A DNA stretch of 33,339 nt from a virus (taxonomy: Duplodnaviria > Heunggongvirae > Uroviricota > Caudoviricetes): IMG/VR virus record IMGVR_UViG_2671180294_000014, one strand, 5' to 3'. Below are positions 3,238-33,339 of the stretch, piece after piece (positions within the stretch are counted from its first letter, which is position 1; each line of letters begins with the position of its first letter). Made by a program: the position numbers and the translations under genes. The notes below the pieces were generated by a model, which was not told the origin of the DNA, ran no database searches, and saw nothing but the letters and a program-made list of their open reading frames with translations.

Positions 3238-3509
3238 GTATTCGTATTGAAATTGGCGAACGTTATGTCGTTACCAGTGACAGCTTCCAGTTTATTCTCC
3301 ACGAGAAAAAGAGAGCGGAAAGCGGTAAAAACGCCGGTCAGGAATGGCTGGCGGTGGTTGGTTATTACCCGAAATTAAGCCAGCTCGTTTCCGGCCTGAT
3401 GCATCACGATATTCTGACCGGAAGCGCAAAGTCTTTTGCTGATTTAAACGCGCAGGTTGAGCAACTCAGCAAGCGTTGTTCAGAGGCTTTTGGCTCATAT
3501 GGCCGTTAA
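3234..3509 (+). CDS. Hypothetical early protein (P2 orf83 position)
   Basis: ATGA overlap with the preceding gene. The 3' end overlaps the start of A. Synteny with P2. Confidence 0.7.
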   Translation: MSIRIEIGERYVVTSDSFQFILHEKKRAESGKNAGQEWLAVVGYYPKLSQLVSGLMHHDILTGSAKSFADLNAQVEQLSKRCSEAFGSYGR

Positions 3510-5796
3510 AGCCTCCGGGCGTTTTGTCCCTCCGTCAGCATTTGCTGCAGGCACCGGTAAGGCGTTTACCGGTGCTTATGCATGGAACGCGCCACGCGAG
3601 GCTGTCGGGCGCGAAAGACCCCTTACACGTGACGAGATGCGTCAGGTGCAAGGTGTTTTATCCACGATTAACCGCCTGCCTTACTTTTTGCGCTCGCTGT
3701 TTACGTCACGCTATGACTACATCCGGCGCAATAAAAGCCCGGTGCACGGGTTTTATTTCCTCACATCCACTTTTCAGCGTCGTTTATGGCCGCGCATTGA
3801 GCGTGTGAATCAGCGCCATGAAATGAACACCGACGCGTCGATGCTGTTTCTGGCTGAGCGTGACCACTATGCGCGCCTGCCGGGAATGAATGACAAGGAG
3901 CTGAAAAAGTTTGCCGCCCGTATCTCATCGCAGCTTTTCATGATGTATGAGGAACTCAGCGATGCCTGGGTGGATGCGCATGGCGAAAAAGAATCGCTGT
4001 TTACGGATGAGGCGCAGGCTCACCTCTATGGTCATGTTGCTGGCGCTGCACGTGCTTTCAATATTTCCCCTCTCTACTGGAAAAAATACCGTAAAGGACA
4101 GATGACCACGAGGCAGGCATATTCTGCCATTGCCCGTCTGTTTAACGATGAGTGGTGGATTAGTCAGCTTAAAGGCCAGCGTATGCGCTGGCATGAGGCG
4201 TTACTGATTGCTGTCGGGGAGGTCAATAAAGACCGTTCTCCTTATGCCAGTAAACATGCCATTCGTGATGTGCGTGCACGCCGCCAGGCAAATCTGGAAT
4301 TTCTTAAATCGTGTGATCTCGAAAACAGGGAAACAGGCGAGCGCATCGACCTTATCAGTAAGGTGATGGGCAGTATTTCTAATCCTGAAATTCGCCGGAT
4401 GGAGCTGATGAACACCATTGCCGGTATTGAGCGTTACGCCGCCGCAGAAGGTGATGTGGGGATGTTTATCACGCTGACCGCGCCGTCAAAGTATCACCCG
4501 ACACGTCAGGTTGGAAAAGGCGAAAGTAAAACCGTCCAGCTAAATCACGGCTGGAACGATGAGGCATTTAATCCAAAGGATGCGCAGCGTTATCTCTGCC
4601 GTATCTGGAGCCTGATGCGCACGGCATTCAAGGATAATGATTTACAGGTCTACGGTTTGCGAGTCGTCGAGCCACACCACGACGGAACGCCGCACTGGCA
4701 TATGATGCTTTTTTGTAATCCACGCCAGCGTAACCAGATTATCGAAATCATGCGTCGCTACGCGCTCAAAGAGGATGGCGACGAAAGAGGAGCTGCGCGA
4801 AACCGTTTTCAGGCAAAACATCTTAATCGGGGCGGTGCTGCGGGGTATATCGCGAAATACATCTCAAAAAATATCGACGGCTATGCACTGGATGGGCAGC
4901 TCGATAACGATAGCGGCAGACCGCTGAAAGATACTGCCGCGGCTGTTACCGCATGGGCGTCAACGTGGCGCATTCCGCAATTTAAAACGGTTGGCCTGCC
5001 GACAATGGGGGCTTACCGTGAACTACGCAAATTGCCTCGCGGCGTCAGCATTGCTGATGAGTTTGACGAGCGCGTCGAGGCTGCACGCGCCGCCGCAGAC
5101 AGTGGTGATTTTGCGCTGTATATCAGCGCGCAGGGTGGGGCAAATGTCCCGCGCGATTGTCAGACTGTCAGGGTCGCCCGTAGTCCGTCGGATGAAGTTA
5201 ACGAGTACGAGGAAGAAGTCGAGAGAGTGGTCGGCATTTACGCGCCGCATCTCGGCGCGCGTCATATTCATATCACCAGAACGACGGACTGGCGCATTGT
5301 TCCGAAAGTGCCGGTCGTTGAGCCTTTGACTTTAAAAAGCGGCATCGCCGCGCCTCGGAGTCCTGTCAATAACTGTGGAAAGCTCACTGGTGGTGATACT
5401 TCGTTACCGGCTCCCACACCTTCTGAGCACGCCGCAGCAGTGCTTAATCTGGTAGATGACGGTGTTATCGAATGGAATGACCCGGAGGTTGTGAGGGCGC
5501 TCAGAGGTGCATTAAAACACGGACTGAGAAGACCAAACCGTCAGCAAAGAAACGGAAGCCCGTTAAAACCGCATGAAATAGCGCCATCGGCCAGACTGAC
5601 CCGGTCGGAACGAATGCAAATTACCCGTATCCGCGTTGACCTTGCTCAGAACGGTATCAGGCCGCAGCGATGGGAGCTTGAGGTGCTGGCGCGTGGGGCA
5701 ACCGTAAATTATGACGGGAAAAAATTCACTTACCCGCTCGCTGATGAGTGGTCGGGATTCTCAACAGTATTAGAGTCAAACTCAGTGAAGCGTTAA
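3499..5796 (+). CDS. A: Replication initiation endonuclease A (rolling-circle Rep)
   Basis: From ATG 3499 the protein reads MAVKASGRFVPPSAFAAGTGK..., as in P2 gpA. It contains the HUH-like EPHHDGTPHWHMM motif and the YIAKYISK tyrosine motif. The ORF-track start at 3457 is an upstream extension overlapping orf83. The P2 ori is known to lie inside the 3' part of A; I did not locate it here. Confidence 0.95.
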   Translation: MAVKASGRFVPPSAFAAGTGKAFTGAYAWNAPREAVGRERPLTRDEMRQVQGVLSTINRLPYFLRSLFTSRYDYIRRNKSPVHGFYFLTSTFQRRLWPRIERVNQRHEMNTDASMLFLAERDHYARLPGMNDKELKKFAARISSQLFMMYEELSDAWVDAHGEKESLFTDEAQAHLYGHVAGAARAFNISPLYWKKYRKGQMTTRQAYSAIARLFNDEWWISQLKGQRMRWHEALLIAVGEVNKDRSPYASKHAIRDVRARRQANLEFLKSCDLENRETGERIDLISKVMGSISNPEIRRMELMNTIAGIERYAAAEGDVGMFITLTAPSKYHPTRQVGKGESKTVQLNHGWNDEAFNPKDAQRYLCRIWSLMRTAFKDNDLQVYGLRVVEPHHDGTPHWHMMLFCNPRQRNQIIEIMRRYALKEDGDERGAARNRFQAKHLNRGGAAGYIAKYISKNIDGYALDGQLDNDSGRPLKDTAAAVTAWASTWRIPQFKTVGLPTMGAYRELRKLPRGVSIADEFDERVEAARAAADSGDFALYISAQGGANVPRDCQTVRVARSPSDEVNEYEEEVERVVGIYAPHLGARHIHITRTTDWRIVPKVPVVEPLTLKSGIAAPRSPVNNCGKLTGGDTSLPAPTPSEHAAAVLNLVDDGVIEWNDPEVVRALRGALKHGLRRPNRQQRNGSPLKPHEIAPSARLTRSERMQITRIRVDLAQNGIRPQRWELEVLARGATVNYDGKKFTYPLADEWSGFSTVLESNSVKR

Positions 5797-5882
5797 CTCA
5801 ATAAATATGAGTTTATAAGTTAGGCCTCGAGATTTTGTAGAAAGGGATGTATACTGAGTATCGTATAGATTTGGAGTGAGTG

Positions 5883-6905
5883 ATGACTGTAAAGGTGATA
5901 GACCTTTTTTGTGGTGCTGGCGGATTAACTCATGGTTTGCAGCTTGCGGGGCTTGATGTCGTTGCAGGCATTGACCTTGAGGGGGAATGTAGGTTTCCCT
6001 ATGAAAGAAACAATAAATCTAAGTTTATTGAGCAAGATATCGCTAAAGTAACAAAAGAGGAACTGCTGAGGCTTTATGGTGATGCGTCTGTAAAAGTATT
6101 GGCAGGATGCGCACCTTGCCAACCTTTTTCAAAATATACTCAAGGAAAAGATAAGGCTGATGATAAAAAATGGCCTCTTCTTTATGAGTTCGAACGTTTA
6201 ATTCGCGAAGTATCTCCAGAAATCGTAACAATGGAGAACGTTCCTGATGTAACTAAACATAAAGTTTATAATGATTTTTATAATTCATTGTTAAAGTTGG
6301 GCTATTATGTTTGGGCGTCTAAGATTGATTGTGTCGAATATGGAATCCCACAAAACCGTTCCCGTCATGTATTGTTGGCCTCAAAATTGGGGGCGATTGA
6401 GTTAGTAAAACGTGACGATGTTATTTTGAAAACAGTTAGAGATGCAATAGGAAATCTTCCTCCATTAGAAGATGGCCAAACAGATCCAAATGATATATTA
6501 CATAGAGCCAGTAAATTAAATCCGATTAATAAAAAAAGAATTATACACTCTGTTCCTGGTGGTACATGGAAGGACTGGCCGAAAGAGTTGGTTGCCGCTT
6601 GTCATATGAAATCCAGCGGTAAAGGGTATGCTAGTGTATATGGGCGCATGTCTTGGGATAAGCCAAGTCCAACAATTACAACTCTTTGTTATGGTTTCGG
6701 GAATGGGCGTTTTGGACATCCAGAACAGCATAGAGCGATTTCTCTTAGAGAGGCTGCTTTATTGCAAACTTTCCCGATGGATTATATTTTTGTAGAAGAC
6801 AAAAACAAGTTTGTTATAAGAAGTATTGGGAAAATGATAGGTAATGCTGTTCCTGTGGAACTAGGAAAAGCAATTGGGCAATCAATCAAGAACCATTTAG
6901 AATGA
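5883..6905 (+). CDS. DNA (cytosine-5) methyltransferase
   Basis: Canonical C5-MTase motifs are present: I DLFCGAGG, IV GCAPCQPFS, VI TMENVPDV, VIII QNRSRHVLLAS, IX-like RMSWDKPSPTITT, and X GNAVPVELG. GGAG lies 6 nt upstream of ATG 5883. The gene is AT-rich and has no P2 counterpart. Confidence 0.93.
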   Translation: MTVKVIDLFCGAGGLTHGLQLAGLDVVAGIDLEGECRFPYERNNKSKFIEQDIAKVTKEELLRLYGDASVKVLAGCAPCQPFSKYTQGKDKADDKKWPLLYEFERLIREVSPEIVTMENVPDVTKHKVYNDFYNSLLKLGYYVWASKIDCVEYGIPQNRSRHVLLASKLGAIELVKRDDVILKTVRDAIGNLPPLEDGQTDPNDILHRASKLNPINKKRIIHSVPGGTWKDWPKELVAACHMKSSGKGYASVYGRMSWDKPSPTITTLCYGFGNGRFGHPEQHRAISLREAALLQTFPMDYIFVEDKNKFVIRSIGKMIGNAVPVELGKAIGQSIKNHLE

Positions 6906-6911
6906 TAAAAT

Positions 6912-6928
6912 GGCCTGCTTTACAGGCC
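6912..6928. terminator. Stem-loop shared by the converging methyltransferase and HEPN genes (candidate bidirectional terminator)
   Basis: GGCCTG-CTTTA-CAGGCC sits between the two stop codons (6903-6905 and 6935-6937). It has A/T-rich flanks on both sides. Confidence 0.55.
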
Positions 6929-6934
6929 TTATAA

Positions 6935-7615
6935 CTATTGTTCTAAATATTCATTATTATTTATATAGTGCTCTATATTATTCACGATAGCATCAAGATA
7001 GGCGATTACTTCTAATGAAATATTCTCTAAGTCCTGATATGAAACATTTTTTCCAATCTCAGCAAATGATACATTGCCATGAGATAAATCATTACGATGT
7101 TGTTTAACAGTGGCTAATTTTTCACCATGTTTAGTGTGAGTGTAATCGGAATGTGTAGAAAAACCATATATTTTCGATTTTTCTTTGATTTCCTCTCTAT
7201 CAATATTTCCTGAGAATATTTTCTTTTTGTTGAACGTGCCATAAGATATACCGCAAGATATACCTTTGGTAAGGTGATTAACTAAACTTTCAACATTTAC
7301 AGATTCATTTTTTAATCTTTTTAATATTTCTGACCTGAGATTTTTCCTGAGTTTGTCAAATTCTACGTTTCTATCATAAATAGTCTCATGAATAAGGCAG
7401 ATAGCTTCTCTCATTGTTGATTCAATGAGGTTATATAACAGTATATATACTGCTCCCTTTAGAGTTTTTCGTGATTGAGCAGTAATGGAGAACTTATGTT
7501 CTTTATCATCAGCTGATATCAGTTCTGCACCGGCATACTCAATAAATTTCAAAAGATCCAAATAGGCCAAGATCTCTCCTGACCTTTCGTCAAAATCCTC
7601 ACGAAAACGATCCAT
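6935..7615 (-). CDS. Stand-alone HEPN-domain protein (predicted RNase-type effector)
   Basis: The 226-aa protein looks helical. An R-x4-H motif, RNDLSH (residues 174-179, nt 7079-7096), lies near the C-terminus. It resembles the family usually annotated as MAE_28990/MAE_18760 HEPN-like nuclease (from memory). Its ATG lies 1 nt after the upstream gene's stop. Confidence 0.75.
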   Translation of the reverse strand: MDRFREDFDERSGEILAYLDLLKFIEYAGAELISADDKEHKFSITAQSRKTLKGAVYILLYNLIESTMREAICLIHETIYDRNVEFDKLRKNLRSEILKRLKNESVNVESLVNHLTKGISCGISYGTFNKKKIFSGNIDREEIKEKSKIYGFSTHSDYTHTKHGEKLATVKQHRNDLSHGNVSFAEIGKNVSYQDLENISLEVIAYLDAIVNNIEHYINNNEYLEQ

Positions 7616-7616
7616 G

Positions 7617-8759
7617 TTAATCCTCTAATAATTTATCCCGAACATATTCAATTCGTTCAATTACCTTCACGCGACTATTAGCTCCGTCGGAAGTGGTCAA
7701 TCGTTTGAATTCTTCTGAGCTTAGCCAATCTAAGTTCTTGGGAACAAGGTCAGGGACTTCACGTAATGCAAGTGCTGCGCCAACAGCGAGAGATTCGAAT
7801 CTAACTCGAGGTGTAGATTTTGCAGTAATAGTTTTCTTGAATCCTGCTGGGAAATAGTTTTCAACAAAAGATAGAACATTAGCAAACTCTTGTTTCATTG
7901 AGTTTTGTTTAGTTTCGTCTATATCTCGATTTTCTGACATATAGTCATTTAGAAAATCCCGTACGGAATGATCAAAGTTCTTGTACTTATCTACGTAGGC
8001 AAAGAATCTTAATGTAAATTCTAACCGTTCATCTCGTTTTTCTTTAGTCTGAGATAAAGGTGCTAATTCTTTAAATTTAGGTATTGTTGAGCATGGCTTA
8101 ATAACCTGTGTATATAAATTTGTTGAACCAAGTTCTGATCCTTTACGGACTTCCATATCTTTCAATATATCGCTGCCAGAGTTAATACGCTCAAAAAGAT
8201 CTCTACGGGTTTCTTCATTGCATTTAGAACTCAATTCTATAACGCGGACAGGAATTCTCATGAAACGACGTTGACGTGATAATGGTAAATCTTGGAATTT
8301 GAAACCATTAAGGACGTCTAAAGATTTCAGGTCTTGTAAAACTAATTCATTTTGGATAAAAGCGTGTATAGTCCTAACTCGTTGTGAGCCATCAACAATC
8401 TCAATTCGCCCATCTAAATCGGGATCTTCGGAGAGAACATCTGCTATAAATATATATGGTATAGGAAAACCCAAAATCAAAGACTCTATCAATTTTGATT
8501 GTCTTTTTTCACTCCAAACAAAATCCCTTTGATAATCAGGAACAAAGAGTTCGTTAGTATCATCCTCTAATCCGTTATGATACTTATTAACTAATAACTC
8601 AACGGTAAATTCTTTGGTCTCAAAATCCACATCCTTTTGCTCAGCACGAATTTGCTCTTCAGCGTTTTGCTTTATCACCTCTAGCTGAGCAAGCAACTCT
8701 GCTCTTTTCTTGGCATTATCTTCATTTTCTAGTTGAGATTTTAAATCAATAATGTCCAT
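7617..8759 (-). CDS. DUF262 (ParB/Srx-like NTPase domain) protein with an N-terminal coiled coil and no fused nuclease domain
   Basis: DUF262 hallmarks are present: VPDYQRDFVWS and IVDGSQR (nt 8379-8393). ATG at 8759 is preceded by AAGGGA; the ORF-track start at 8777 is a TTG extension. I see no DUF1524/His-Me motif in the C-terminal half. Confidence 0.8.
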   Translation of the reverse strand: MDIIDLKSQLENEDNAKKRAELLAQLEVIKQNAEEQIRAEQKDVDFETKEFTVELLVNKYHNGLEDDTNELFVPDYQRDFVWSEKRQSKLIESLILGFPIPYIFIADVLSEDPDLDGRIEIVDGSQRVRTIHAFIQNELVLQDLKSLDVLNGFKFQDLPLSRQRRFMRIPVRVIELSSKCNEETRRDLFERINSGSDILKDMEVRKGSELGSTNLYTQVIKPCSTIPKFKELAPLSQTKEKRDERLEFTLRFFAYVDKYKNFDHSVRDFLNDYMSENRDIDETKQNSMKQEFANVLSFVENYFPAGFKKTITAKSTPRVRFESLAVGAALALREVPDLVPKNLDWLSSEEFKRLTTSDGANSRVKVIERIEYVRDKLLED

Positions 8760-8944
8760 GTCTAGTTCCCTTAACAAGTGTTAAAAATTGAAGCGGATAG
8801 CATACCGCATAGATCATGAAAAATGCCATCATGTGCATGGATTTGCATGCGTCAGAAGTCGCTTTTATTGTTAGTTATCACTAGCGCTGGCGTGCTCTTG
8901 GAGTGTTCATGCAACTGCATTAAAACCGCCCCATGAAGCGGGCG

Positions 8945-8963
8945 GGCGAGGCGGGGAAAGCAC
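8945..8963. other. cos: cos site (19-nt P2 cohesive end sequence)
   Basis: GGCGAGGCGGGGAAAGCAC exactly matches my memory of the P2 cohesive end and start of the P2 genome. It lies between the hotspot and Q, as in P2. Confidence 0.85.
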
Positions 8964-9130: not shown

Positions 9131-10165
9131 TCAGCCGTTGTCAGTGTCCAGTGAGTAGTTTTTAAAGCGGATGACCTCCTGACCGAGCCAGCCGTTTATC
9201 TCGCGGATCCTGTCCTGTAACGGGATAAGCTCATTGCGGACAAAGACCTTTGCCACTTTCTCAATATCACCCAGCGACCCGACGTTCTCCGGCTTGCCCC
9301 CCATCAACTGAAAGGGGATGCGGTGCGCGTCCAGCAGGTCAGCGGCGCTGGCTTTTTTGATATTAAAAAAATCGTCCTTCGTTGCCACTTCACTGAGCGG
9401 GATAATTTTAATGCCGTCGGCTTTCCCCTGTGGGGCATAGAGAAACAGATTTTTAAAGTTATTGCGGCCTTTCGACTTAACCATGTTTTCGCGAAGCATT
9501 TCGATATCGTTGCGATCCTGCACGGCATCGGTGACGTACATGATGTATCCGGCATGTGCGCCGTTTTCGTAATACTTGCGGCGGAACAGCGTGGCCGACT
9601 CATTCAGCCATGCAGAGTTAAGGGCGCTGAGATATTCCGGCAGGCCGTACAGCTCCTGATTAATATCAGGCTCCAGCAGGTGAAACACGGAGCCGGGCGC
9701 GAAGGCTGTCGGCTCGTTGAAGGACGGCACCCACCAGTAAACATCCTCCTCCACGCCACGACGGGTATATTTGGCCGGTGAGGTTTCCAGTCTGATGACC
9801 TTACCGGTGGTGCTGTAACGCTTTTCCAGAAACGCATTACCGAACACCAGAAAATCCAGCACAAAACGGCTGAAATCCTGCTGGGAAAGCCACGGGTGCG
9901 GGATAAACGTTGAAGCCAGAATATTACGTTTGACGTAAATCGGTGAGCTGTGATGCACGGCAGCACGCAGGCTTTTTGCCAGACCGGTAAAGCTGACCGG
10001 CGGCTCATACCATCTGCCGTTACTGATGCACTCGACGTAATCCAGAATGTCACGGCGGTCGAGTACCGGCACCGGCTCACCAAAGGTGAATGCTTCCATT
10101 TTCGGGGCGCTGGCGGTGATTGTTTTTGCCGCAGGTCGCGGTGTTTTCCCTTTTTTCTTGCTCAT
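9131..10165 (-). CDS. Q: Portal (capsid vertex) protein
   Basis: 344 aa, the same length as P2 gpQ and near-identical by recall. Confidence 0.96.
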   Translation of the reverse strand: MSKKKGKTPRPAAKTITASAPKMEAFTFGEPVPVLDRRDILDYVECISNGRWYEPPVSFTGLAKSLRAAVHHSSPIYVKRNILASTFIPHPWLSQQDFSRFVLDFLVFGNAFLEKRYSTTGKVIRLETSPAKYTRRGVEEDVYWWVPSFNEPTAFAPGSVFHLLEPDINQELYGLPEYLSALNSAWLNESATLFRRKYYENGAHAGYIMYVTDAVQDRNDIEMLRENMVKSKGRNNFKNLFLYAPQGKADGIKIIPLSEVATKDDFFNIKKASAADLLDAHRIPFQLMGGKPENVGSLGDIEKVAKVFVRNELIPLQDRIREINGWLGQEVIRFKNYSLDTDNG

Positions 10166-13023: not shown

Positions 13024-14096
13024 ATGCGCCAGGAAACCCGCTTTAAATTTAATGCTTACCTGTCCCGTGTTGCCGAGCTGAACGGCATCGACGCCGGTGA
13101 TGTGTCGAAAAAATTCACCGTTGAACCGTCGGTCACCCAGACCCTGATGAACACCATGCAGGAGTCCTCTGACTTTCTGACCCGCATCAACATTGTGCCG
13201 GTCAGTGAAATGAAAGGGGAAAAAATTGGCATCGGTGTCACCGGCTCCATCGCCAGCACCACCGACACCGCCGGTGGCACCGAGCGTCAGCCGAAGGACT
13301 TCTCGAAGCTGGCGTCAAACAAGTACGAATGCGACCAGGTTAACTTCGATTTTTATATCCGCTACAAAACGCTTGACCTGTGGGCGCGTTATCAGGATTT
13401 CCAGCTCCGTATCCGTAACGCCATTATCAAACGCCAGTCCCTTGATTTCATCATGGCCGGTTTTAACGGCGTGAAGCGTGCCGAAACCTCTGACCGCAAC
13501 AGTAATCCGATGCTGCAGGATGTGGCGGTCGGCTGGCTGCAGAAATACCGAATGAAGCCCCGGCGCGCGTGATGAGCAAGGTCACTGACGAGGAAGGCCG
13601 CACCACCTCTGAGGTTATCCGCGTGGGTAAGGGCGGTGATTATGTAAGCCTCGATGCACTGGTGATGGATGCGACCAACAACCTGATTGAACCTTGGTAT
13701 CAGGAAGACCCTGACCTTGTGGTGATTGTGGGGCGTCAGCTACTGGCGGACAAGTATTTCCCTATCGTCAACAAGGAGCAGGATAACAGCGAGATGCTGG
13801 CCGCTGACGTCATCATCAGCCAGAAACGCATCGGTAACCTGCCGGCGGTACGCGTCCCGTACTTCCCGGCGGATGCGATGCTCATCACGAAGCTGGAAAA
13901 CCTGTCCATCTACTACATGGATGACAGCCATCGCCGCGTGATTGTGGAAAACCCGAAACTCGACCGCGTGGAGAACTACGAGTCAATGAACATTGATTAC
14001 GTGGTGGAGGACTACGCCGCCGGTTGTCTGGTGGAAAAAATTAAGGTCGGTGATTTCTCCACACCGGCTAAAGCGACCGCAGAGCCGGGAGCGTAA
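13024..14096 (+). pseudogene. N: Major capsid protein N, split by a 1-nt deletion frameshift near 13549-13551
   Basis: ORFs 13024-13572 and 13569-14096 together reproduce P2 gpN (357 aa). P2 reads ...QKYRNEAPARVMSKVTDEEG. Here cag aaa tac cga atg aag ccc cgg cgc gcg tga reads QKYRMKPRRA*. Restoring one base after 'cg' at 13549-13550 gives ...RNEAPARVMSK in frame. Confidence 0.85.
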
Positions 14097-23766: not shown

Positions 23767-25185
23767 CTACATCGGGCTCTTATATGGGGAATGAGAGTTT
23801 TTGAAACGCGGTTCTTCATGCTTCGGACTGTAAATTCTTGCATGATTATCTATCACAACTTTACTTCCAAGAATATCTCGAGCTTCTCCTAACGACCACA
23901 CAGTAGAAAGATCATTAGTCAAATTTCGATAGAGAGCACGAAACCCCTTGGGTTTTTTAAGATCATATAAGAAATCAGGAACTTTAACTTTAAAATTAAA
24001 GGTCGGTAGTTTCGGAAGGGAATTAATAGCCGCAACAGTATTGTATACATGTACAAGCTTAGTTACAGGTACACCTTGTCTAGTCTTGAGCCCATACTTA
24101 GTTCGAATATAATCTGATTCTTTCGATACTTCAGTAAGCAATGCTCTTACTGACTTATTAGCTTGAGGCAATTCATTTTCATCAAACAAGCGCTTTATTT
24201 CTCGCATTTTCTCACGGGCCCTTACAAATTCGTTGTTGTCCCTTATGTTATAAGCAGCTTCAACAATACAACTTGGATCACCAGTTTCTTTTGCGAGCCA
24301 TGCCGAAAATAAAGGAAGCGAAGTTGCTGTTGCTACAGCTTTACCACCAGAATGAATATCAATGAGATCATGACTTAACGAAGTGGAAAAGTTTTCTACA
24401 ATATGTTTAGCATAGTCAAAACCATACTGACAGTTTTGGCTTAAATATGTCTGTTGATACGCCTGACGTAATGGATATAAAAAAGTATCTGCTTGAAGGT
24501 ACTTAGCTGTGAGAGAATAAAATACTGCCCGATTAGCCAGCCATACAAGCGAAGCCACGAATGCTTTGATTGCATCTGATGCTTCACCAGCAGATGTGCC
24601 ATCCCCCCATTTTGCTCCGGGAACTTTGTACCCCTTGCGAATAGGGTTGCCAAATCGATCGAGAAGTTCAACATCGCCATTTGTTCTATTACCAGACTCA
24701 GCAGCATCACGCAGTTCTGAAAAAATGGCAGCAGCAATGTTACCATATTTTTCAAACTCCTTACCTCCATCAGATAAGTTCTTCAGTGTTAGATGATAAA
24801 CACTTGAACTAATGTCCCATGTACATATGATATGTGTCTGAAGAAGTTCAATTAGTTTTTTAAAATCGTCATTAACAAATGTTCCACCACGAATTTTAGG
24901 TTTCAATGCATCAGATATTTTTTTTGCTTCACTTTCAATTTCATCCAACCCATATTGTGCTTTATCAAGAAATAATATCTCTCTGAAACTTGAAATCCTA
25001 CTCCCACGGTACTCTGGAATATAATCATCAACCGCGATAACGTGATCATAGAACAAAATAGACTGTATATAGTTCTCAAATGCTATTATGTCTGTATCTA
25101 CTGAGTCCTTCGATCTTGTTTTTACTTTCCCCTCGATTCTTTGGACTGCAGTTAGAGTTGAATTATCAATCAGTGCGTATGTCAT
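23767..25185 (-). CDS. Hypothetical 472-aa protein with no recognisable domain (cargo of the Z/fun hotspot)
   Basis: It is a long uninterrupted AT-rich ORF with ATG at 25185 and an AAGGAA SD 6 nt upstream. It lies opposite to both flanking late operons and has no P2 counterpart. I could not find nucleotide-binding, nuclease, TM or HTH motifs by eye. Confidence 0.8.
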   Translation of the reverse strand: MTYALIDNSTLTAVQRIEGKVKTRSKDSVDTDIIAFENYIQSILFYDHVIAVDDYIPEYRGSRISSFREILFLDKAQYGLDEIESEAKKISDALKPKIRGGTFVNDDFKKLIELLQTHIICTWDISSSVYHLTLKNLSDGGKEFEKYGNIAAAIFSELRDAAESGNRTNGDVELLDRFGNPIRKGYKVPGAKWGDGTSAGEASDAIKAFVASLVWLANRAVFYSLTAKYLQADTFLYPLRQAYQQTYLSQNCQYGFDYAKHIVENFSTSLSHDLIDIHSGGKAVATATSLPLFSAWLAKETGDPSCIVEAAYNIRDNNEFVRAREKMREIKRLFDENELPQANKSVRALLTEVSKESDYIRTKYGLKTRQGVPVTKLVHVYNTVAAINSLPKLPTFNFKVKVPDFLYDLKKPKGFRALYRNLTNDLSTVWSLGEARDILGSKVVIDNHARIYSPKHEEPRFKNSHSPYKSPM

Positions 25186-27649: not shown

Positions 27650-27801
27650 CGCTTCCGAAAAATCTGTCGGTCGATGACCTGATGGCGGATGTGGCAGTGA
27701 TATTTCACTGGCCGCCATCAGAACTGTATCCCATGAGCCTGACCGAACTCATCACATGGCGCGAAAAGGCGCTCAGGCGAAGCGGAAACACGAATGAGTA
27801 A
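27374..27801 (+). CDS. E+E': Tail assembly chaperone E+E' made by a programmed -1 frameshift at G GTT TTT TG (27620-27628)
   Basis: The slippery run TTTTTTG lies in the E frame. The -1 frame from 27625 reads FVAELGAVTLPKNLSVDDLMADVAVIFHWPPSELYPMSLTELITWREKALRRSGNTNE*, with its stop at 27799-27801. This matches the known P2 E' extension. Confidence 0.85.
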
Positions 27802-30245
27802 CAATGTAAAATTACAGGTATTGCTCAGGGCTGTTGACCAGGCGTCCCGCCCGTTTAAATCCATCCGCAGAGCGAGTAAGTTGCTGTCGGGGGATATCCG
27901 GGAAACACAAAAATCACTGCGCGAGCTGAACGGTCACGCATCCCGTATTGAGGGATTCCGCAAGACCAGTGCACAGCTCGCCGTGACTGGTCATGCACTT
28001 GAAAAGGCACGGCAGGAGGCCGAAGCCCTTGCCACACAGTTTAAAAACACCGAACGCCCGACCCGTGCTCAGGCGAAAGTGCTGGAATCCGCAAAGCGTG
28101 CGGCGGAGGACTTACAGGCGAAATATAACCGCCTGACAGATTCCGTTAAACGCCAGCAGCGGGAACTGGCCGCTGTGGGAATTAATACCCGCAATCTTGC
28201 ACATGATGAGCAGGGACTGAAAAACCGTATCAGTGAAACCACCGCCCAGCTTAACCGGCAGCGTGACGCGCTGGCGCGTGTCAGTGCGCAACAGGCAAAA
28301 CTTAACGCAGTCAAACAGCGTTATCAGGCCGGAAAGGAACTGGCCGGAAATATGGCCTCAGTGGGCGCTGCCGGTGTGGGGATTGCTGCTGCGGGAACGA
28401 TAGCCGGAGTTAAGCTGCTGATGCCAGGTTATGAGTTTGCGCAGAAAAACTCAGAATTGCAGGCTGTGCTCGGTGTGGCAAAAGACTCCGCCGAAATGGC
28501 TGCACTCCGCAAGCAGGCGCGCCAGCTCGGTGACAACACCGCCGCCTCAGCGGATGATGCGGCCGGTGCACAGATTATCATTGCGAAAGCGGGTGGGGAT
28601 GTTGATGCCATTCAGGCGGCAACGCCGGTCACGCTGAATATGGCGCTGGCGAACCGCCGCACAATGGAAGAAAACGCCGCCCTGCTGATGGGGATGAAAT
28701 CCGCCTTTCAGCTTTCAAACGATAAGGTCGCTCATATCGGGGATGTTCTCTCCATGACGATGAACAAAACCGCCGCTGATTTTGACGGCATGAGCGATGC
28801 GCTGACCTATGCCGCACCAGTGGCAAAAAATGCCGGTGTCAGCATTGAAGAAACCGCCGCAATGGTCGGGGCGCTGCATGATGCAAAAATCACAGGCTCA
28901 ATGGCGGGGACGGGAAGCCGTGCCGTGTTAAGTCGCCTGCAGGCACCGACTGGAAAAGCATGGGATGCACTCAAAGAGCTTGGCGTGAAAACCTCAGACA
29001 GTAAGGGAAACACCCGACCAGTATTTACCATTCTGAAAGAAATGCAGGCCAGCTTTGAGAAAAACCGGCTCGGTACTGCCCAGCAGGCCGAATACATGAA
29101 AACCATTTTCGGGGAGGAGGCCAGCTCAGCCGCCGCTGTGCTGATGACTGCCGCGTCAACCGGAAAGCTGGACAAACTGACCGCTGCGTTTAAAGCCTCA
29201 GACGGGAAGACCGCAGAGCTGGTAAATATCATGCAGGACAACCTCGGCGGTGACTTTAAGGAGTTTCAGTCCGCTTATGAGGCGGTGGGGACAGACCTGT
29301 TTGACCAGCAGGAAGGCGCGCTACGTAAGCTCACGCAGACGGCCACAAAGTATGTGTTAAAACTCGACGGCTGGGTACAGAAAAACAAATCACTGGCGTC
29401 AACCATTGGCCTCATTGCCGGTGGCGCGCTGGCGCTGACTGGCATCATCGGTGCAATTGGTCTTGTAGCCTGGCCGGTTATCACCGGCATCAATGCCATC
29501 ATCGCGGCAGCAGGCGCAATGGGGGCAATCTTCACGACGGTTGGTAGTGCCGTTATGACGGCCATCGGGGCGATTAGCTGGCCGGTTGTGGCTGGGGGGG
29601 NNNNNNNNNNNNNTCGCCGGGGCGTTGCTTATCCGTAAATACTGGGAGCCTGTCAGCGCATTCTTTGGCGGTGTGGTTGAAGGGCTGAAAGCGGCATTTG
29701 CGCCGGTGGGGGAGCTGTTCACGCCACTGAAACCGGTGTTTGACTGGCTGGGCGAAAAGTTACAGGCTGCGTGGCAGTGGTTTAAAAACCTGATTGCCCC
29801 GGTCAAAGCCACCCAGGACACCCTGAACCGTTGCCGTGACACGGGCGTCATGTTCGGGCAGGCACTGGCTGACGCGCTGATGCTGCCGCTTAATGCGTTC
29901 AACAAATTGCGCAGCGGCATTGACTGGGTACTGGAAAAGCTCGGGGTCATCAACAAAGAGTCAGACACACTTGACCAGACCGCCGCCAGAACTCATGCCG
30001 CCACGTATGGCACCGGTGGTTATATTCCGGCGACCAGCTCTTATGCAGGCTATCAGGCTTATCAGCCGGTCACGGCACCGGCTGGCCGCTCTTATGTGGA
30101 CCAGAGTAAAAACGAATATCACATCAGCCTGACGGGTGGTACTGCACCGGGGACACAGCTTGACCGCCAGTTACAGGATGCGCTCGAAAAATACGAGCGG
30201 GATAAACGTGCGCGCGCCCGTGCCAGCATGATGCATGACGGTTAA
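27794..30245 (+). CDS. T: Tail tape measure protein, interrupted by an assembly gap
   Basis: The two ORFs (27794-29638 and 29586-30245) both match P2 gpT (815 aa). They are separated by 13 N at 29601-29613 and are in different frames, which is a gap artefact. Confidence 0.9.
29601..29613. other. Run of 13 N (assembly or scaffold gap), preceded by a G7 run
   Basis: Directly visible in the sequence. Confidence 1.
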
Positions 30246-32355: not shown

Positions 32356-32436
32356 ATCCTCAATTTGCCTGCTGCTTAATGCATTGCAGATGATTTGCTT
32401 CCGTTATACTAGCGTCAGTTGATAGCGGGAGTATTT

Positions 32437-33339
32437 ATGAATCAATCTTATGGACGGCTGGTCAGTCGGGCGGCGATTGCTGCGACGGCGATGGCTTCGC
32501 TGCTATTGCTGATTAAAATTTTTGCATGGTGGTATACCGGGTCGGTGAGTATTCTCGCCGCGCTGGTGGATTCGCTGGTGGATATCGGCGCGTCGTTGAC
32601 GAATTTACTGGTGGTGCGATATTCCCTGCAACCTGCCGACGATAATCACTCGTTTGGTCACGGTAAAGCTGAGTCCCTCGCGGCGCTGGCGCAAAGTATG
32701 TTTATCTCCGGTTCGGCACTATTCCTGTTTTTGACGGGTATTCAACATCTGGTATCTCCAACACCGATGACAGATCCAGGCGTCGGGGTTATCGTGACAA
32801 TTGTGGCGCTAATTTGTACGATTATCCTTGTCTCGTTTCAGCGGTGGGTGGTGCGCCGGACGCAAAGCCAGGCGGTGCGGGCTGATATGCTACATTACCA
32901 GTCTGATGTTATGATGAACGGCGCAATTCTGCTGGCGCTGGGGTTGTCCTGGTACGGCTGGCATCGCGCCGATGCTCTGTTTGCATTGGGAATCGGCATC
33001 TATATTTTATATAGCGCGTTACGCATGGGATATGAGGCGGTACAGTCATTACTGGATCGCGCATTGCCTGATGAGGAACGGCAAGAAATTATTGATATCG
33101 TGACTTCCTGGCCGGGTGTTAGCGGCGCTCACGATCTTCGCACGCGGCAGTCAGGGCCGACCCGCTTTATTCAGATTCATTTGGAAATGGAAGACTCTCT
33201 GCCTTTGGTTCAGGCACATATGGTGGCGGATCAGGTAGAGCAGGCTATTTTACGGCGTTTTCCGGGATCGGATGTAATTATCCATCAGGACCCCTGTTCC
33301 GTCGTACCCAGGGAGGGTAAACGGTCTATGCTTTCATAA
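32437..33339 (+). CDS. fieF: Cation-efflux (Zn/Fe) transporter FieF/YiiP, CDF family (chromosomal)
   Basis: From ATG 32437 the protein reads [47 protein letters not shown]... It is 300 aa and matches E. coli FieF by recall. The ORF-track start at 32419 is a TTG extension. Confidence 0.96.

Follow-up and report, generated by a model that had tools for sequence, protein, structure and literature searches.

A mobile DUF262–HEPN cassette linked to a C5 methyltransferase in the A-to-cos slot of a P2-like prophage

A three-gene island between gene A and cos

We analyzed a 33,339-nucleotide (nt) stretch of viral DNA (IMG/VR record IMGVR_UViG_2671180294_000014), termed here, in its full length, the window, which is a P2-like prophage: an integrase stands at the left end, the A, Q, P, capsid, tail and D genes follow, and a host cation-efflux gene forms the right end. 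Between replication gene A and cos, this prophage carries an island of three genes (Table 1): a C5 cytosine DNA methyltransferase (MTase) on the plus strand converges on a minus-strand operon that encodes a DUF262 protein followed by a HEPN protein. The island stands in place of the P2 genes orf91, tin and old, all three of which are absent here by alignment to the P2 genome (NC_001895). Homology to P2 breaks off in the last ~20 nt of gene A, which form the junction, and returns at position 8916, in a segment (8916–8963) that corresponds to the annotated cosR of P2; homology to a P2-like Escherichia coli prophage with unrelated cargo (L045) returns at 8833. Guanine-cytosine (GC) content is 36.4% at 5797–8944, as compared to 53.2% in gene A, 55.8% in genes Q and P, and 53.0% in the remaining window.

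An account of the same DNA made from its letters alone (hereafter, the sequence-only reading) had described an AT-rich interval with no P2 counterpart, in which a plus-strand C5 MTase converges on a DUF262–HEPN operon, a stem-loop is shared between the stops, and no classical restriction endonuclease is present, all of which agrees with our results here and below. It had also drawn the limits of the backbone at 5796 and 8945: there is indeed cargo between A and cos, but the exact edges differ from those limits, by ~20 nt on the left and ~110 nt on the right. Its view of the A-to-cos interval as a variable slot, as opposed to ordinary P2-like backbone, was upheld in a survey of 5,426 complete E. 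coli genomes, in which the flanks were matched in 2,176 and the island in 9, each time adjoining a replication endonuclease gene. No DNA-level match to the island was present among INPHARED phages. The small number of island carriers relative to flank matches, together with the lack of an INPHARED match, indicates that the island genes are accessory cargo, and rules out that they are ordinary backbone.

The cargo between the conserved A and cos/portal genes thus varies: the trio in this prophage, orf91, tin and old in P2, and other genes in L045. P2 hotspots are reservoirs of defence systems (Rousset et al., 2022, PMC9122126), and tin and old, in the same position in P2, are annotated as lysogenic-conversion, phage-excluding genes (NC_001895). 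The main texts of Rousset et al. (2022) and of a later study (NAR 2026, gkag898) make no mention of DUF262, PD-T4-2 or a methyltransferase in the A-to-cos slot.

Table 1. Features of the island and its flanks (positions are those of the window; ORF, open reading frame; aa, amino acids)
Feature	Position	Strand	Basis or remarks
P2 replication gene A, left backbone flank	3457..5796	+	ORF; 'replication endonuclease' in near-identical E. coli locus; blastn to NC_001895 ends at 5776
Cargo island	~5777..8832	.	3,056 bp, 35.9% GC; edges are the loss and return of P2-like backbone homology
Candidate sigma-70 promoter for MTase, TCGAGA-17-TATACT	5827..5855	+	Consensus scan, weak (9/12); scan hits not enriched over shuffles
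C5 cytosine DNA methyltransferase, 340 aa	5883..6905	+	PF00145 3.4e-58; TIGR00675 1.5e-37; ATG 5883 after GGAG Shine-Dalgarno
Inter-stop stem-loop GGCCTG-CTTTA-CAGGCC	6912..6928	.	6-7 bp, -10.8 kcal/mol
HEPN protein, MAE_28990 family, 226 aa, predicted RNase effector	6935..7615	-	PF18737 5.8e-29; Rx4H motif RNDLSH (R174/H179)
DUF262 (ParB-like NTPase) with C-terminal helical domain, 380 aa	7617..8759	-	PF03235 GmrSD_N/DUF262 8.2e-26
Region upstream of DUF262–HEPN operon	8760..8832	-	Outside the homology with the lambdoid copy, which ends at the ATG
P2-type cos cohesive-end sequence GGCGAGGCGGGGAAAGCAC, right backbone flank	8945..8963	+	Sequence; aligns to annotated cosR of NC_001895
Portal gene Q, right backbone flank	9131..10165	-	ORF; 'phage portal protein' in near-identical E. 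coli locus

Domains, motifs and control signals of the three genes

The MTase contains all of the catalytic motifs expected of its class: FCGAGG (residue 9), PCQPFS (78), ENV (118), QNRSR (157) and GNAVP (320). The GTG at 5880, which is the mechanical start of the ORF, is unlikely to initiate translation, as it is the ATG at 5883 that follows a Shine-Dalgarno sequence, and homologs as well as the RefSeq protein (from a 97.7%-identical E. coli locus) have 340 aa. Its best relatives among solved structures are M.HaeIII, DNMT1 and M.HhaI, over the catalytic regions; because these match the catalytic core only, the target sequence of the MTase is not inferable from them. PADLOC, of which we applied only the hidden Markov models (HMMs), matched the MTase to generic C5-MTase models (DrmMII, MTase_II and DruM).

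The HEPN protein belongs to PF18737 over its full length (102 bits, with a cut-off of 26.8) and also matches HEPN_RiboL-PSP (PF18735, 8e-9). Its HEPN fold is confirmed, and we refer to it as a predicted ribonuclease (RNase). It matches no PADLOC model at E≤0.1. The DUF262 protein, a predicted nucleoside triphosphatase (NTPase), retains all three motifs of its domain (QRDFVW at residue 77, DGSQR at 123 and FERIN at 189) and is closest to BrxU and SspE. Its start is the ATG at 8759, which is preceded by an AGGGA Shine-Dalgarno sequence, and not the less likely TTG at 8777; both its homologs and the RefSeq protein have 380 aa. Since a single base separates the DUF262 stop codon from the start codon of HEPN, the two genes are probably translationally coupled. 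Against PADLOC, the DUF262 protein scored highest with NsnA (1.7e-54, 184 bits, positions 25–376 of 385), followed by PD-T4-2_A (2.5e-35, 120 bits, positions 55–356 of 363), and NCBIfam holds no specific family for it or for HEPN.

None of the island proteins has a PD-(D/E)xK, HNH, GIY-YIG or PLD domain, or a match to PF07510/DUF1524, in Pfam, and the C-terminal half of the DUF262 protein is all-helical, with no match to a nuclease fold. The nearest approach to a restriction endonuclease is a weak match of the DUF262 region to the 'Type II REase' model of PADLOC, REase_II (9.4e-6 here, and down to 1e-13 in the sister clade described below). There are three ORFs of at least 40 aa in the island outside overlapping frames, and none encodes an ATPase.

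The stop codons of the MTase and HEPN genes are separated by 29 nt, and the stem-loop between them is a probable bidirectional terminator. The same hairpin recurs in the representatives of seven further Enterobacterales clusters from the survey that follows, where the loops differ and the stem changes are paired (GGCCTG/CAGGCC versus AGCCTG/CAGGCT). A consensus scan yielded a candidate promoter for the MTase but none upstream of the DUF262 start codon at 8759; promoter-like hits in the region as a whole were not enriched over shuffled sequences.

Linkage of the three genes across bacterial phyla

Starting from DUF262, we searched GTDB genomes, JGI metagenomes (whose assemblies carry frameshift errors) and IMG/VR, which gave about 200 loci, and scanned each locus with per-gene HMMs. 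A total of 190 loci belong to the family and form 128 clusters at 90% identity; they were retrieved with DUF262-derived patterns, up to 80 per scan, such that distant and MTase-less relatives are under-sampled in all of the counts below. The hosts include Gamma-, Alpha- and Deltaproteobacteria, Bacteroidota, Planctomycetota, Cyanobacteria, Lentisphaerae and Acidobacteriota. Among the 128 clusters, wherever the DNA extends far enough downstream for a judgment, the HEPN gene directly follows the DUF262 gene on the same strand, without exception. A C5 MTase adjoins this pair in 105 of the 128 clusters: it is convergent after HEPN, as in the present prophage, in 60, upstream and co-directional in 38, downstream and co-directional in six, and divergent in one. 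Most convergent loci have an overlap, typically of 4 nt, between the 3' ends of the MTase and HEPN ORFs. Context-blind look-ups in the reverse direction, from two HEPN homologs (34–39% identity) and four MTase homologs (60–74%), recovered the trio in six of six cases.

The 11 clusters without a C5 MTase form a single, exclusive clade of DUF262 in a simple neighbor-joining tree built from pairwise identities, with no MTase-linked cluster inside this clade and no MTase-less cluster outside of it; because MTase-less clusters are confined in this manner, no loss of the MTase is seen elsewhere in the family. Neighbors of the MTase-less pairs are unrelated genes (PBP/OmpA, Fic, PepQ, relaxase and reverse transcriptase), and the copies on IncF plasmids of E. 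coli and Salmonella are of this type. The DUF262 proteins of this clade give the same PADLOC profile and values as those of the MTase-linked group. One of its loci (L029 3750–6775) encodes an N6/N4 DNA methylase and a DndB-like protein of the ParB/DUF262 superfamily ~700 bp downstream of DUF262–HEPN, and this methylase may be a different modification partner. In their C-terminal helical domains (residues ~310–365), the two groups also differ in sequence: MTase-linked proteins have 'KSTPRVRFE' and 'TTSD-ASNSxPRV', and MTase-less proteins have '-VSRxxFE' and 'GKYxTHSxxxI'. These signatures are candidate determinants of what the putative sensor reads.

That this linkage has outlasted repeated rearrangement across phyla points to a functional unit and to selection for the combination of genes, and the 3' ORF overlaps and the restriction of exceptions to one clade favor such a unit over the ordinary clustering of genes within defence islands. 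The trio is a true unit with an obligate three-way linkage, and the co-occurrence test that the sequence-only reading had suggested is strongly positive. We also compared how the three proteins diverge, using pairwise identities among 87 cluster representatives (Spearman correlations and Mantel tests). The divergence of DUF262 is closely matched by that of HEPN (Spearman 0.83, Mantel p=0.002), in line with co-diversification as would be expected of physically interacting partners.

Movement of the cassette among unrelated elements

The three genes move as one piece between unrelated elements, i.e., P2-like, lambdoid and Moraxella phages and integrative islands. Copies in different backbones have a core in common that runs from 5820/5826 to 8759/8773, or from the candidate MTase promoter through the DUF262 start codon; the left edge of the core shared by the lambdoid, 186-like and Providencia copies (5820–5826) coincides with this promoter. 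In Klebsiella pneumoniae, the cassette is in a lambdoid prophage, between replication genes and RusA/antiterminator Q, and in Salmonella it occupies, as here, the A-to-portal slot of a 186/P2-like prophage. It occurs in nine phages of Moraxella catarrhalis and, again in the A-to-cos slot, in Peduovirus P24B2. The Providencia copy adjoins a fragment of a portal gene among chromosomal genes, in what looks like a decayed prophage that has kept the cassette. Other E. coli strains carry a second, divergent allele (MTase 71% identical) in the same P2 slot.

Several copies show further peculiarities. One Klebsiella copy (L037 8346–8828) has a stored HEPN call of 160 aa, yet its DNA encodes the full-length ORF, and one Salmonella copy (L041 8933–9973) has an insertion sequence with an rve transposase between the HEPN and MTase genes, with all three genes intact. 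A Salmonella 186-like prophage with the cassette also encodes a Dam-type MethyltransfD12 upstream of gene A (L039 12970–13827) and hence two DNA methylases. The Pseudomonas aeruginosa copy is in an integrase/AlpA island, where a very-short-patch mismatch-repair (Vsr) gene lies beside the MTase (L213 5028–5438), an association also present in a metagenomic locus (L205 4396–4809); the presence of Vsr would fit a methylase that is active and mutagenic through deamination of 5-methylcytosine (m5C).

The left junction of the cassette is not constant. In the present prophage, orf91 (DUF3850/ASCH) and a small ORF, which usually follow gene A, are missing (5777–5880), whereas both precede this cassette in E. 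coli GN04592 (L046 1584–2410) and in prophages with the second allele (L208–L210), indicating that the cassette was inserted or retained with two different left junctions.

Other features of the prophage

The ORF at the right end of the window (32419–33339) is the host cation-efflux gene (FieF-like), and cpxP is on the other side of the prophage in the near-identical E. coli locus (L001 1–114), which places the integration between cpxP and fieF. A frameshift divides the major capsid gene, of the P2 family, into ORFs at 13024–13572 (positions 1–170 of Phage_cap_P2) and 13569–14096 (positions 178–327), which together span 1,073 nt. An IMG/VR contig (L127) has the same sequence, and E. coli JNE120442 has an unbroken gene of 1,074 nt; either the prophage is defective or the split is a sequencing error. 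The tape-measure gene is apparently split as well (27794–30245), into overlapping ORFs of 614 aa with a PhageMin_Tail match and 219 aa with no match, possibly a second frameshift in an essential gene. Following the tail-fibre genes, in the position of the variable Z/fun slot of P2, is a minus-strand ORF of 472 aa (23767–25185) with no match in Pfam or PADLOC, which is cargo of a second hotspot.

A proposed methylation-coupled defence cassette

We assign a probability of about 0.7 to the view that these three genes constitute one functional, methylation-coupled DUF262–HEPN defence cassette. The cassette is most likely a prophage-borne anti-phage system, operating by superinfection exclusion or abortive infection. 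The position of the island, where P2 carries the lysogenic-conversion genes tin and old, argues for an anti-phage role, and a defence function is further supported by the resemblance of the DUF262–HEPN core to PD-T4-2, validated against T4, and to the Menshen sensor NsnA. The linked MTase suggests DNA modification state as the cue. Where DUF262 domains have been characterized, they are driven by NTP, read the modification of DNA and switch an effector attached to them. The marks are modified cytosines for GmrSD, BrxU and TgvAB, and the DUF262 domain of SspE reads the phosphorothioate that its host makes itself, upon which its GTPase is stimulated, the protein is released from DNA and its nickase is turned on.

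In the mechanism that we envisage by analogy with these proteins, the MTase would write m5C on resident DNA, both chromosome and prophage, and the DUF262 protein, a ParB-like NTPase with a helical domain for DNA binding, would read the modification state of DNA in the manner of SspE, GmrSD, BrxU and TgvAB. As long as DUF262 cycles on marked DNA, the HEPN RNase, which is the sole effector predicted to be catalytic, would be silent; an encounter of DUF262 with replicating DNA that lacks the mark would release HEPN, and translation would stop in the infected cell. Such a scheme supposes that the cassette is expressed in the lysogen and that HEPN acts on RNA. We prefer a version in which DUF262 positively recognizes m5C, with little regard to sequence context, as an 'off' or reset signal.

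A number of observations weigh against such a coupling or sit uneasily with it. DUF262 and the MTase do not co-diversify (rho 0.05, Mantel p=0.24). The MTases of the family are of two groups that have a mutual identity of only ~30%, and near-identical DUF262–HEPN pairs hold either group: In the loci L017 and L088, for example, identity is 83% for DUF262 and 75% for HEPN but 29% for the MTase. No segment of DUF262 tracks the swap, in that the divergence profile equals that of control pairs with the same MTase, and an exchange of MTases without a change in DUF262 is awkward for classical restriction-modification (R-M) with matched specificities. Two loci have a broken MTase. In phage P24B2 (NC_049387.1; L215 1994–3041), the gene has a single frameshift at about residue 226, with DUF262 and HEPN intact, and it is otherwise 99–100% identical to an intact Salmonella allele, and thus the frameshift may be a sequencing error; in a metagenome-assembled genome (L015), the MTase is split. 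If these breaks are genuine, the pair does not kill when its methylase is missing, which would favor either a licensing role of methylation or substitution by a host methylase. Furthermore, the sister clade and PD-T4-2 work or persist without a linked MTase, the HEPN protein resembles nothing among the defence models of PADLOC, and no experimental study of the trio (MAE_28990/PF18737, or DUF262 with HEPN and methyltransferase) was found in the literature searched.

Cumulatively, the C5 MTase is obligatory yet interchangeable within the MTase-linked clade. A context-free reading of m5C as the 'off' signal would account for both aspects, i.e., for the absence of MTase loss and for MTase swapping, and it is on this ground that we favor that version; even so, the specific direction of the methyl signal is put forward tentatively, at less than even odds. 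Stated at its boldest, the cassette would provide epigenetic immunity without a restriction endonuclease, its NTPase reading m5C from any co-resident C5 MTase, whatever the sequence specificity, as 'self' and unmarked DNA licensing the HEPN RNase to abort the infection; the sensor of the MTase-less sister clade (e.g., on IncF plasmids) would then have been rewired to a different cue. In this form, we consider the proposal doubtful.

Competing explanations

Foremost among the alternatives, albeit unlikely, is an R-M system with a back-up suicide RNase, modeled on PrrC-EcoprrI: DUF262 would act as a DNase on unmethylated DNA, the MTase would protect, and HEPN, which the R-M proteins would keep inactive, would fire only if a phage neutralized them. 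This is how the only prior authors to consider HEPN genes in R-M contexts read them, their generic hypothesis being that R-M-linked HEPN RNases are a PrrC-like second line (Anantharaman et al., 2013). It draws on the weak match of DUF262 to the 'Type II REase' model and on the convergent and M-first operon layouts, which are typical of R-M systems. However, GmrSD, BrxU, SspE and TgvB cut by means of a separate His-Me domain (DUF1524), with DUF262 serving as NTPase and sensor, and DUF1524 is absent here; and it is difficult to see how a sequence-specific endonuclease could tolerate the swap of MTases between DUF262 proteins that are nearly identical and show no compensating change.

Free exchange of MTases would be tolerated if, as in Ssp, the self-made mark activated DUF262 instead of protecting from it, such that a pair without MTase is inert rather than toxic. 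Characterized DUF262 sensors do recognize modified, and not unmodified, DNA, and the apparently MTase-null but otherwise intact loci of P24B2 and L015 fit an inert state, unless the P24B2 frameshift is an artifact of sequencing. Yet a diffusible RNase in the presence of constant host m5C would be self-toxic unless there is a further, phage-specific cue, and neutral decay should have produced some MTase losses among ~105 clusters, where none is seen. We therefore judge this licensing arrangement to be rather improbable.

R-M-like modules behave as addiction modules, and the cassette may similarly serve to stabilize its mobile element by post-segregational killing: loss of the cassette would dilute methylation, a longer-lived DUF262–HEPN would kill the cell, and any defence would be secondary. 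Nearly every copy resides on a mobile element, and one has survived next to a portal fragment in what is left of a decayed prophage. The cassette nevertheless occupies the slot of the P2 exclusion genes, and the related PD-T4-2 protects in its native strain, which makes addiction as the primary role quite improbable, although the same cassette could serve both addiction and defence.

Solitary methyltransferases are frequent in phages, and the MTase could be an orphan or anti-restriction enzyme that happens to share a hotspot with a PD-T4-2-like defence pair, as might be surmised from its position on the opposite strand with its own candidate promoter, its failure to co-diversify with the pair, the existence of MTase-less pairs and the additional MethyltransfD12 of the Salmonella 186-like prophage; but with the MTase next to the pair in 105 clusters, in four arrangements and from many phyla and types of element, exceptions in a single clade, trios in four of four MTase-first look-ups, and 3' ORF overlaps in most convergent loci, such independence is very improbable.

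The preferred reading, that of a methylation-coupled cassette, bears on a sensor domain that recurs throughout bacterial immunity (GmrSD, BrxU, SspE, Menshen, Dazbog and PD-T4-2). As a compact, three-gene system native to E. coli, the cassette offers a handle on what nuclease-less DUF262 proteins sense and on how the effector receives the signal, and the MTase-linked group and the MTase-free clade provide a natural comparison. The exchange of MTases between near-identical sensor–effector pairs argues against simple matched-specificity restriction, and if the HEPN RNase is the sole effector, the cassette would be an R-M-like system that distinguishes self from non-self but kills through RNA. 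The cassette also shows one and the same cargo shuttling among phages (P2-like, lambdoid and Moraxella), islands independent of plasmids, and remnants of prophages. It is, in addition, an unrecognized entry in the repertoire of the P2 hotspots, one that current classifiers would miss or annotate by half.

Comparison with known systems

With the tin/old cargo of P2 and with the P2/P4 hotspots in general, the island shares the A-to-cos slot, the placement of minus-strand cargo beside cos, and the logic of lysogenic conversion, whereas the genes themselves are unrelated to the trio. With classical type II R-M, it shares a C5 MTase that, as judged from sequence, has all of its motifs. PrrC-EcoprrI likewise embeds a HEPN RNase in DNA-modification machinery and follows the logic of abortive infection, but PrrC has its own ABC-ATPase and is located inside hsdMSR; in contrast, the HEPN protein here is a stand-alone protein of 226 aa that is accompanied by DUF262 and a type II-like C5 MTase.

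The DUF262 N-terminal NTPase domain is common to the cassette and to GmrSD, BrxU and TgvAB, which lack a cognate methylase and rely on the His-Me nuclease of DUF1524 to attack DNA with modified cytosines, whereas the cassette has no DUF1524 and an MTase of its own. In SspABCD-SspE, the mark is a phosphorothioate made by four proteins and the effector is a fused DUF1524 nickase, as opposed to m5C from one enzyme and a separate, predicted HEPN RNase. SspE matches in PADLOC are weak and N-terminal only (1.7e-4), and there are no ssp or dnd genes in the island. If the proposed mechanism is true, an m5C reader would be the base-methylation counterpart of the phosphorothioate-sensing logic of Ssp, with RNA instead of DNA as its target.

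Two characterized systems come closer. By PADLOC models, no known defence system is complete in the island, such that the sequence-only reading withstands the classifier test that it had named as a possible refutation: the DUF262 protein matches NsnA and PD-T4-2_A, the HEPN protein matches no model, and NsnB and NsnC are absent. Menshen consists of NsnA, the ABC-ATPase NsnB, encoded directly downstream of NsnA, and NsnC, with an inactive PIN-like and a nuclease domain (Millman et al., 2022; Li et al., 2025, NAR gkaf357, PMC12065111); ~28% of its loci are near R-M or methylase genes, as neighbors only (PMC12065111). The DUF262 protein is of the NsnA type, with the same three motifs and a C-terminal helical 'ParBDB' domain, and NsnA is its strongest PADLOC match; however, its partner here is HEPN, and since two of the three defining components of Menshen are missing, we rejected membership in that system.

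PD-T4-2 is a 1.54-kb unit of two ORFs ('DUF262, HEPN') from E. coli ECOR65 that protects against T4, also in its native strain (Vassallo et al., 2022). The two-gene DUF262–HEPN architecture is the same, and the HEPN protein matches PF18735, the family given for PD-T4-2. It misses the PD-T4-2_B model (E≤0.1), however, and PD-T4-2 lacks the MTase that is invariably linked in the clade at hand. The PD-T4-2_A score of 120 bits is far below the level of members and is exceeded by that for NsnA (184 bits). We rejected membership on the grounds of the missed B model and of an A-model score that is equal in the sister clade. As judged from the PADLOC and Pfam models, the DUF262–HEPN core appears to be a distant sister of PD-T4-2 and not a member.

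The trio has more precedent than the sequence-only reading had implied: a neighborhood of MAE_28990 HEPN, ParB and DNA methylase genes is listed in Table 1 of Anantharaman, Makarova, Burroughs, Koonin and Aravind (2013, Biol Direct 8:15), and the pair in PD-T4-2 has been validated against T4. All three parts of that operon class are present here, i.e., a PF18737 HEPN protein with an Rx4-6H motif, an adjacent ParB-fold DUF262 protein and an adjacent DNA methylase. The 2013 account is one line in a comparative-genomics table, with no experiment, and does not include the prophage-hotspot context, the split into MTase-linked and MTase-less groups, or the swapping of MTases. The cassette, although a member of no experimentally characterized system, is an instance of the neighborhood predicted in 2013 and a relative of both PD-T4-2 and Menshen.

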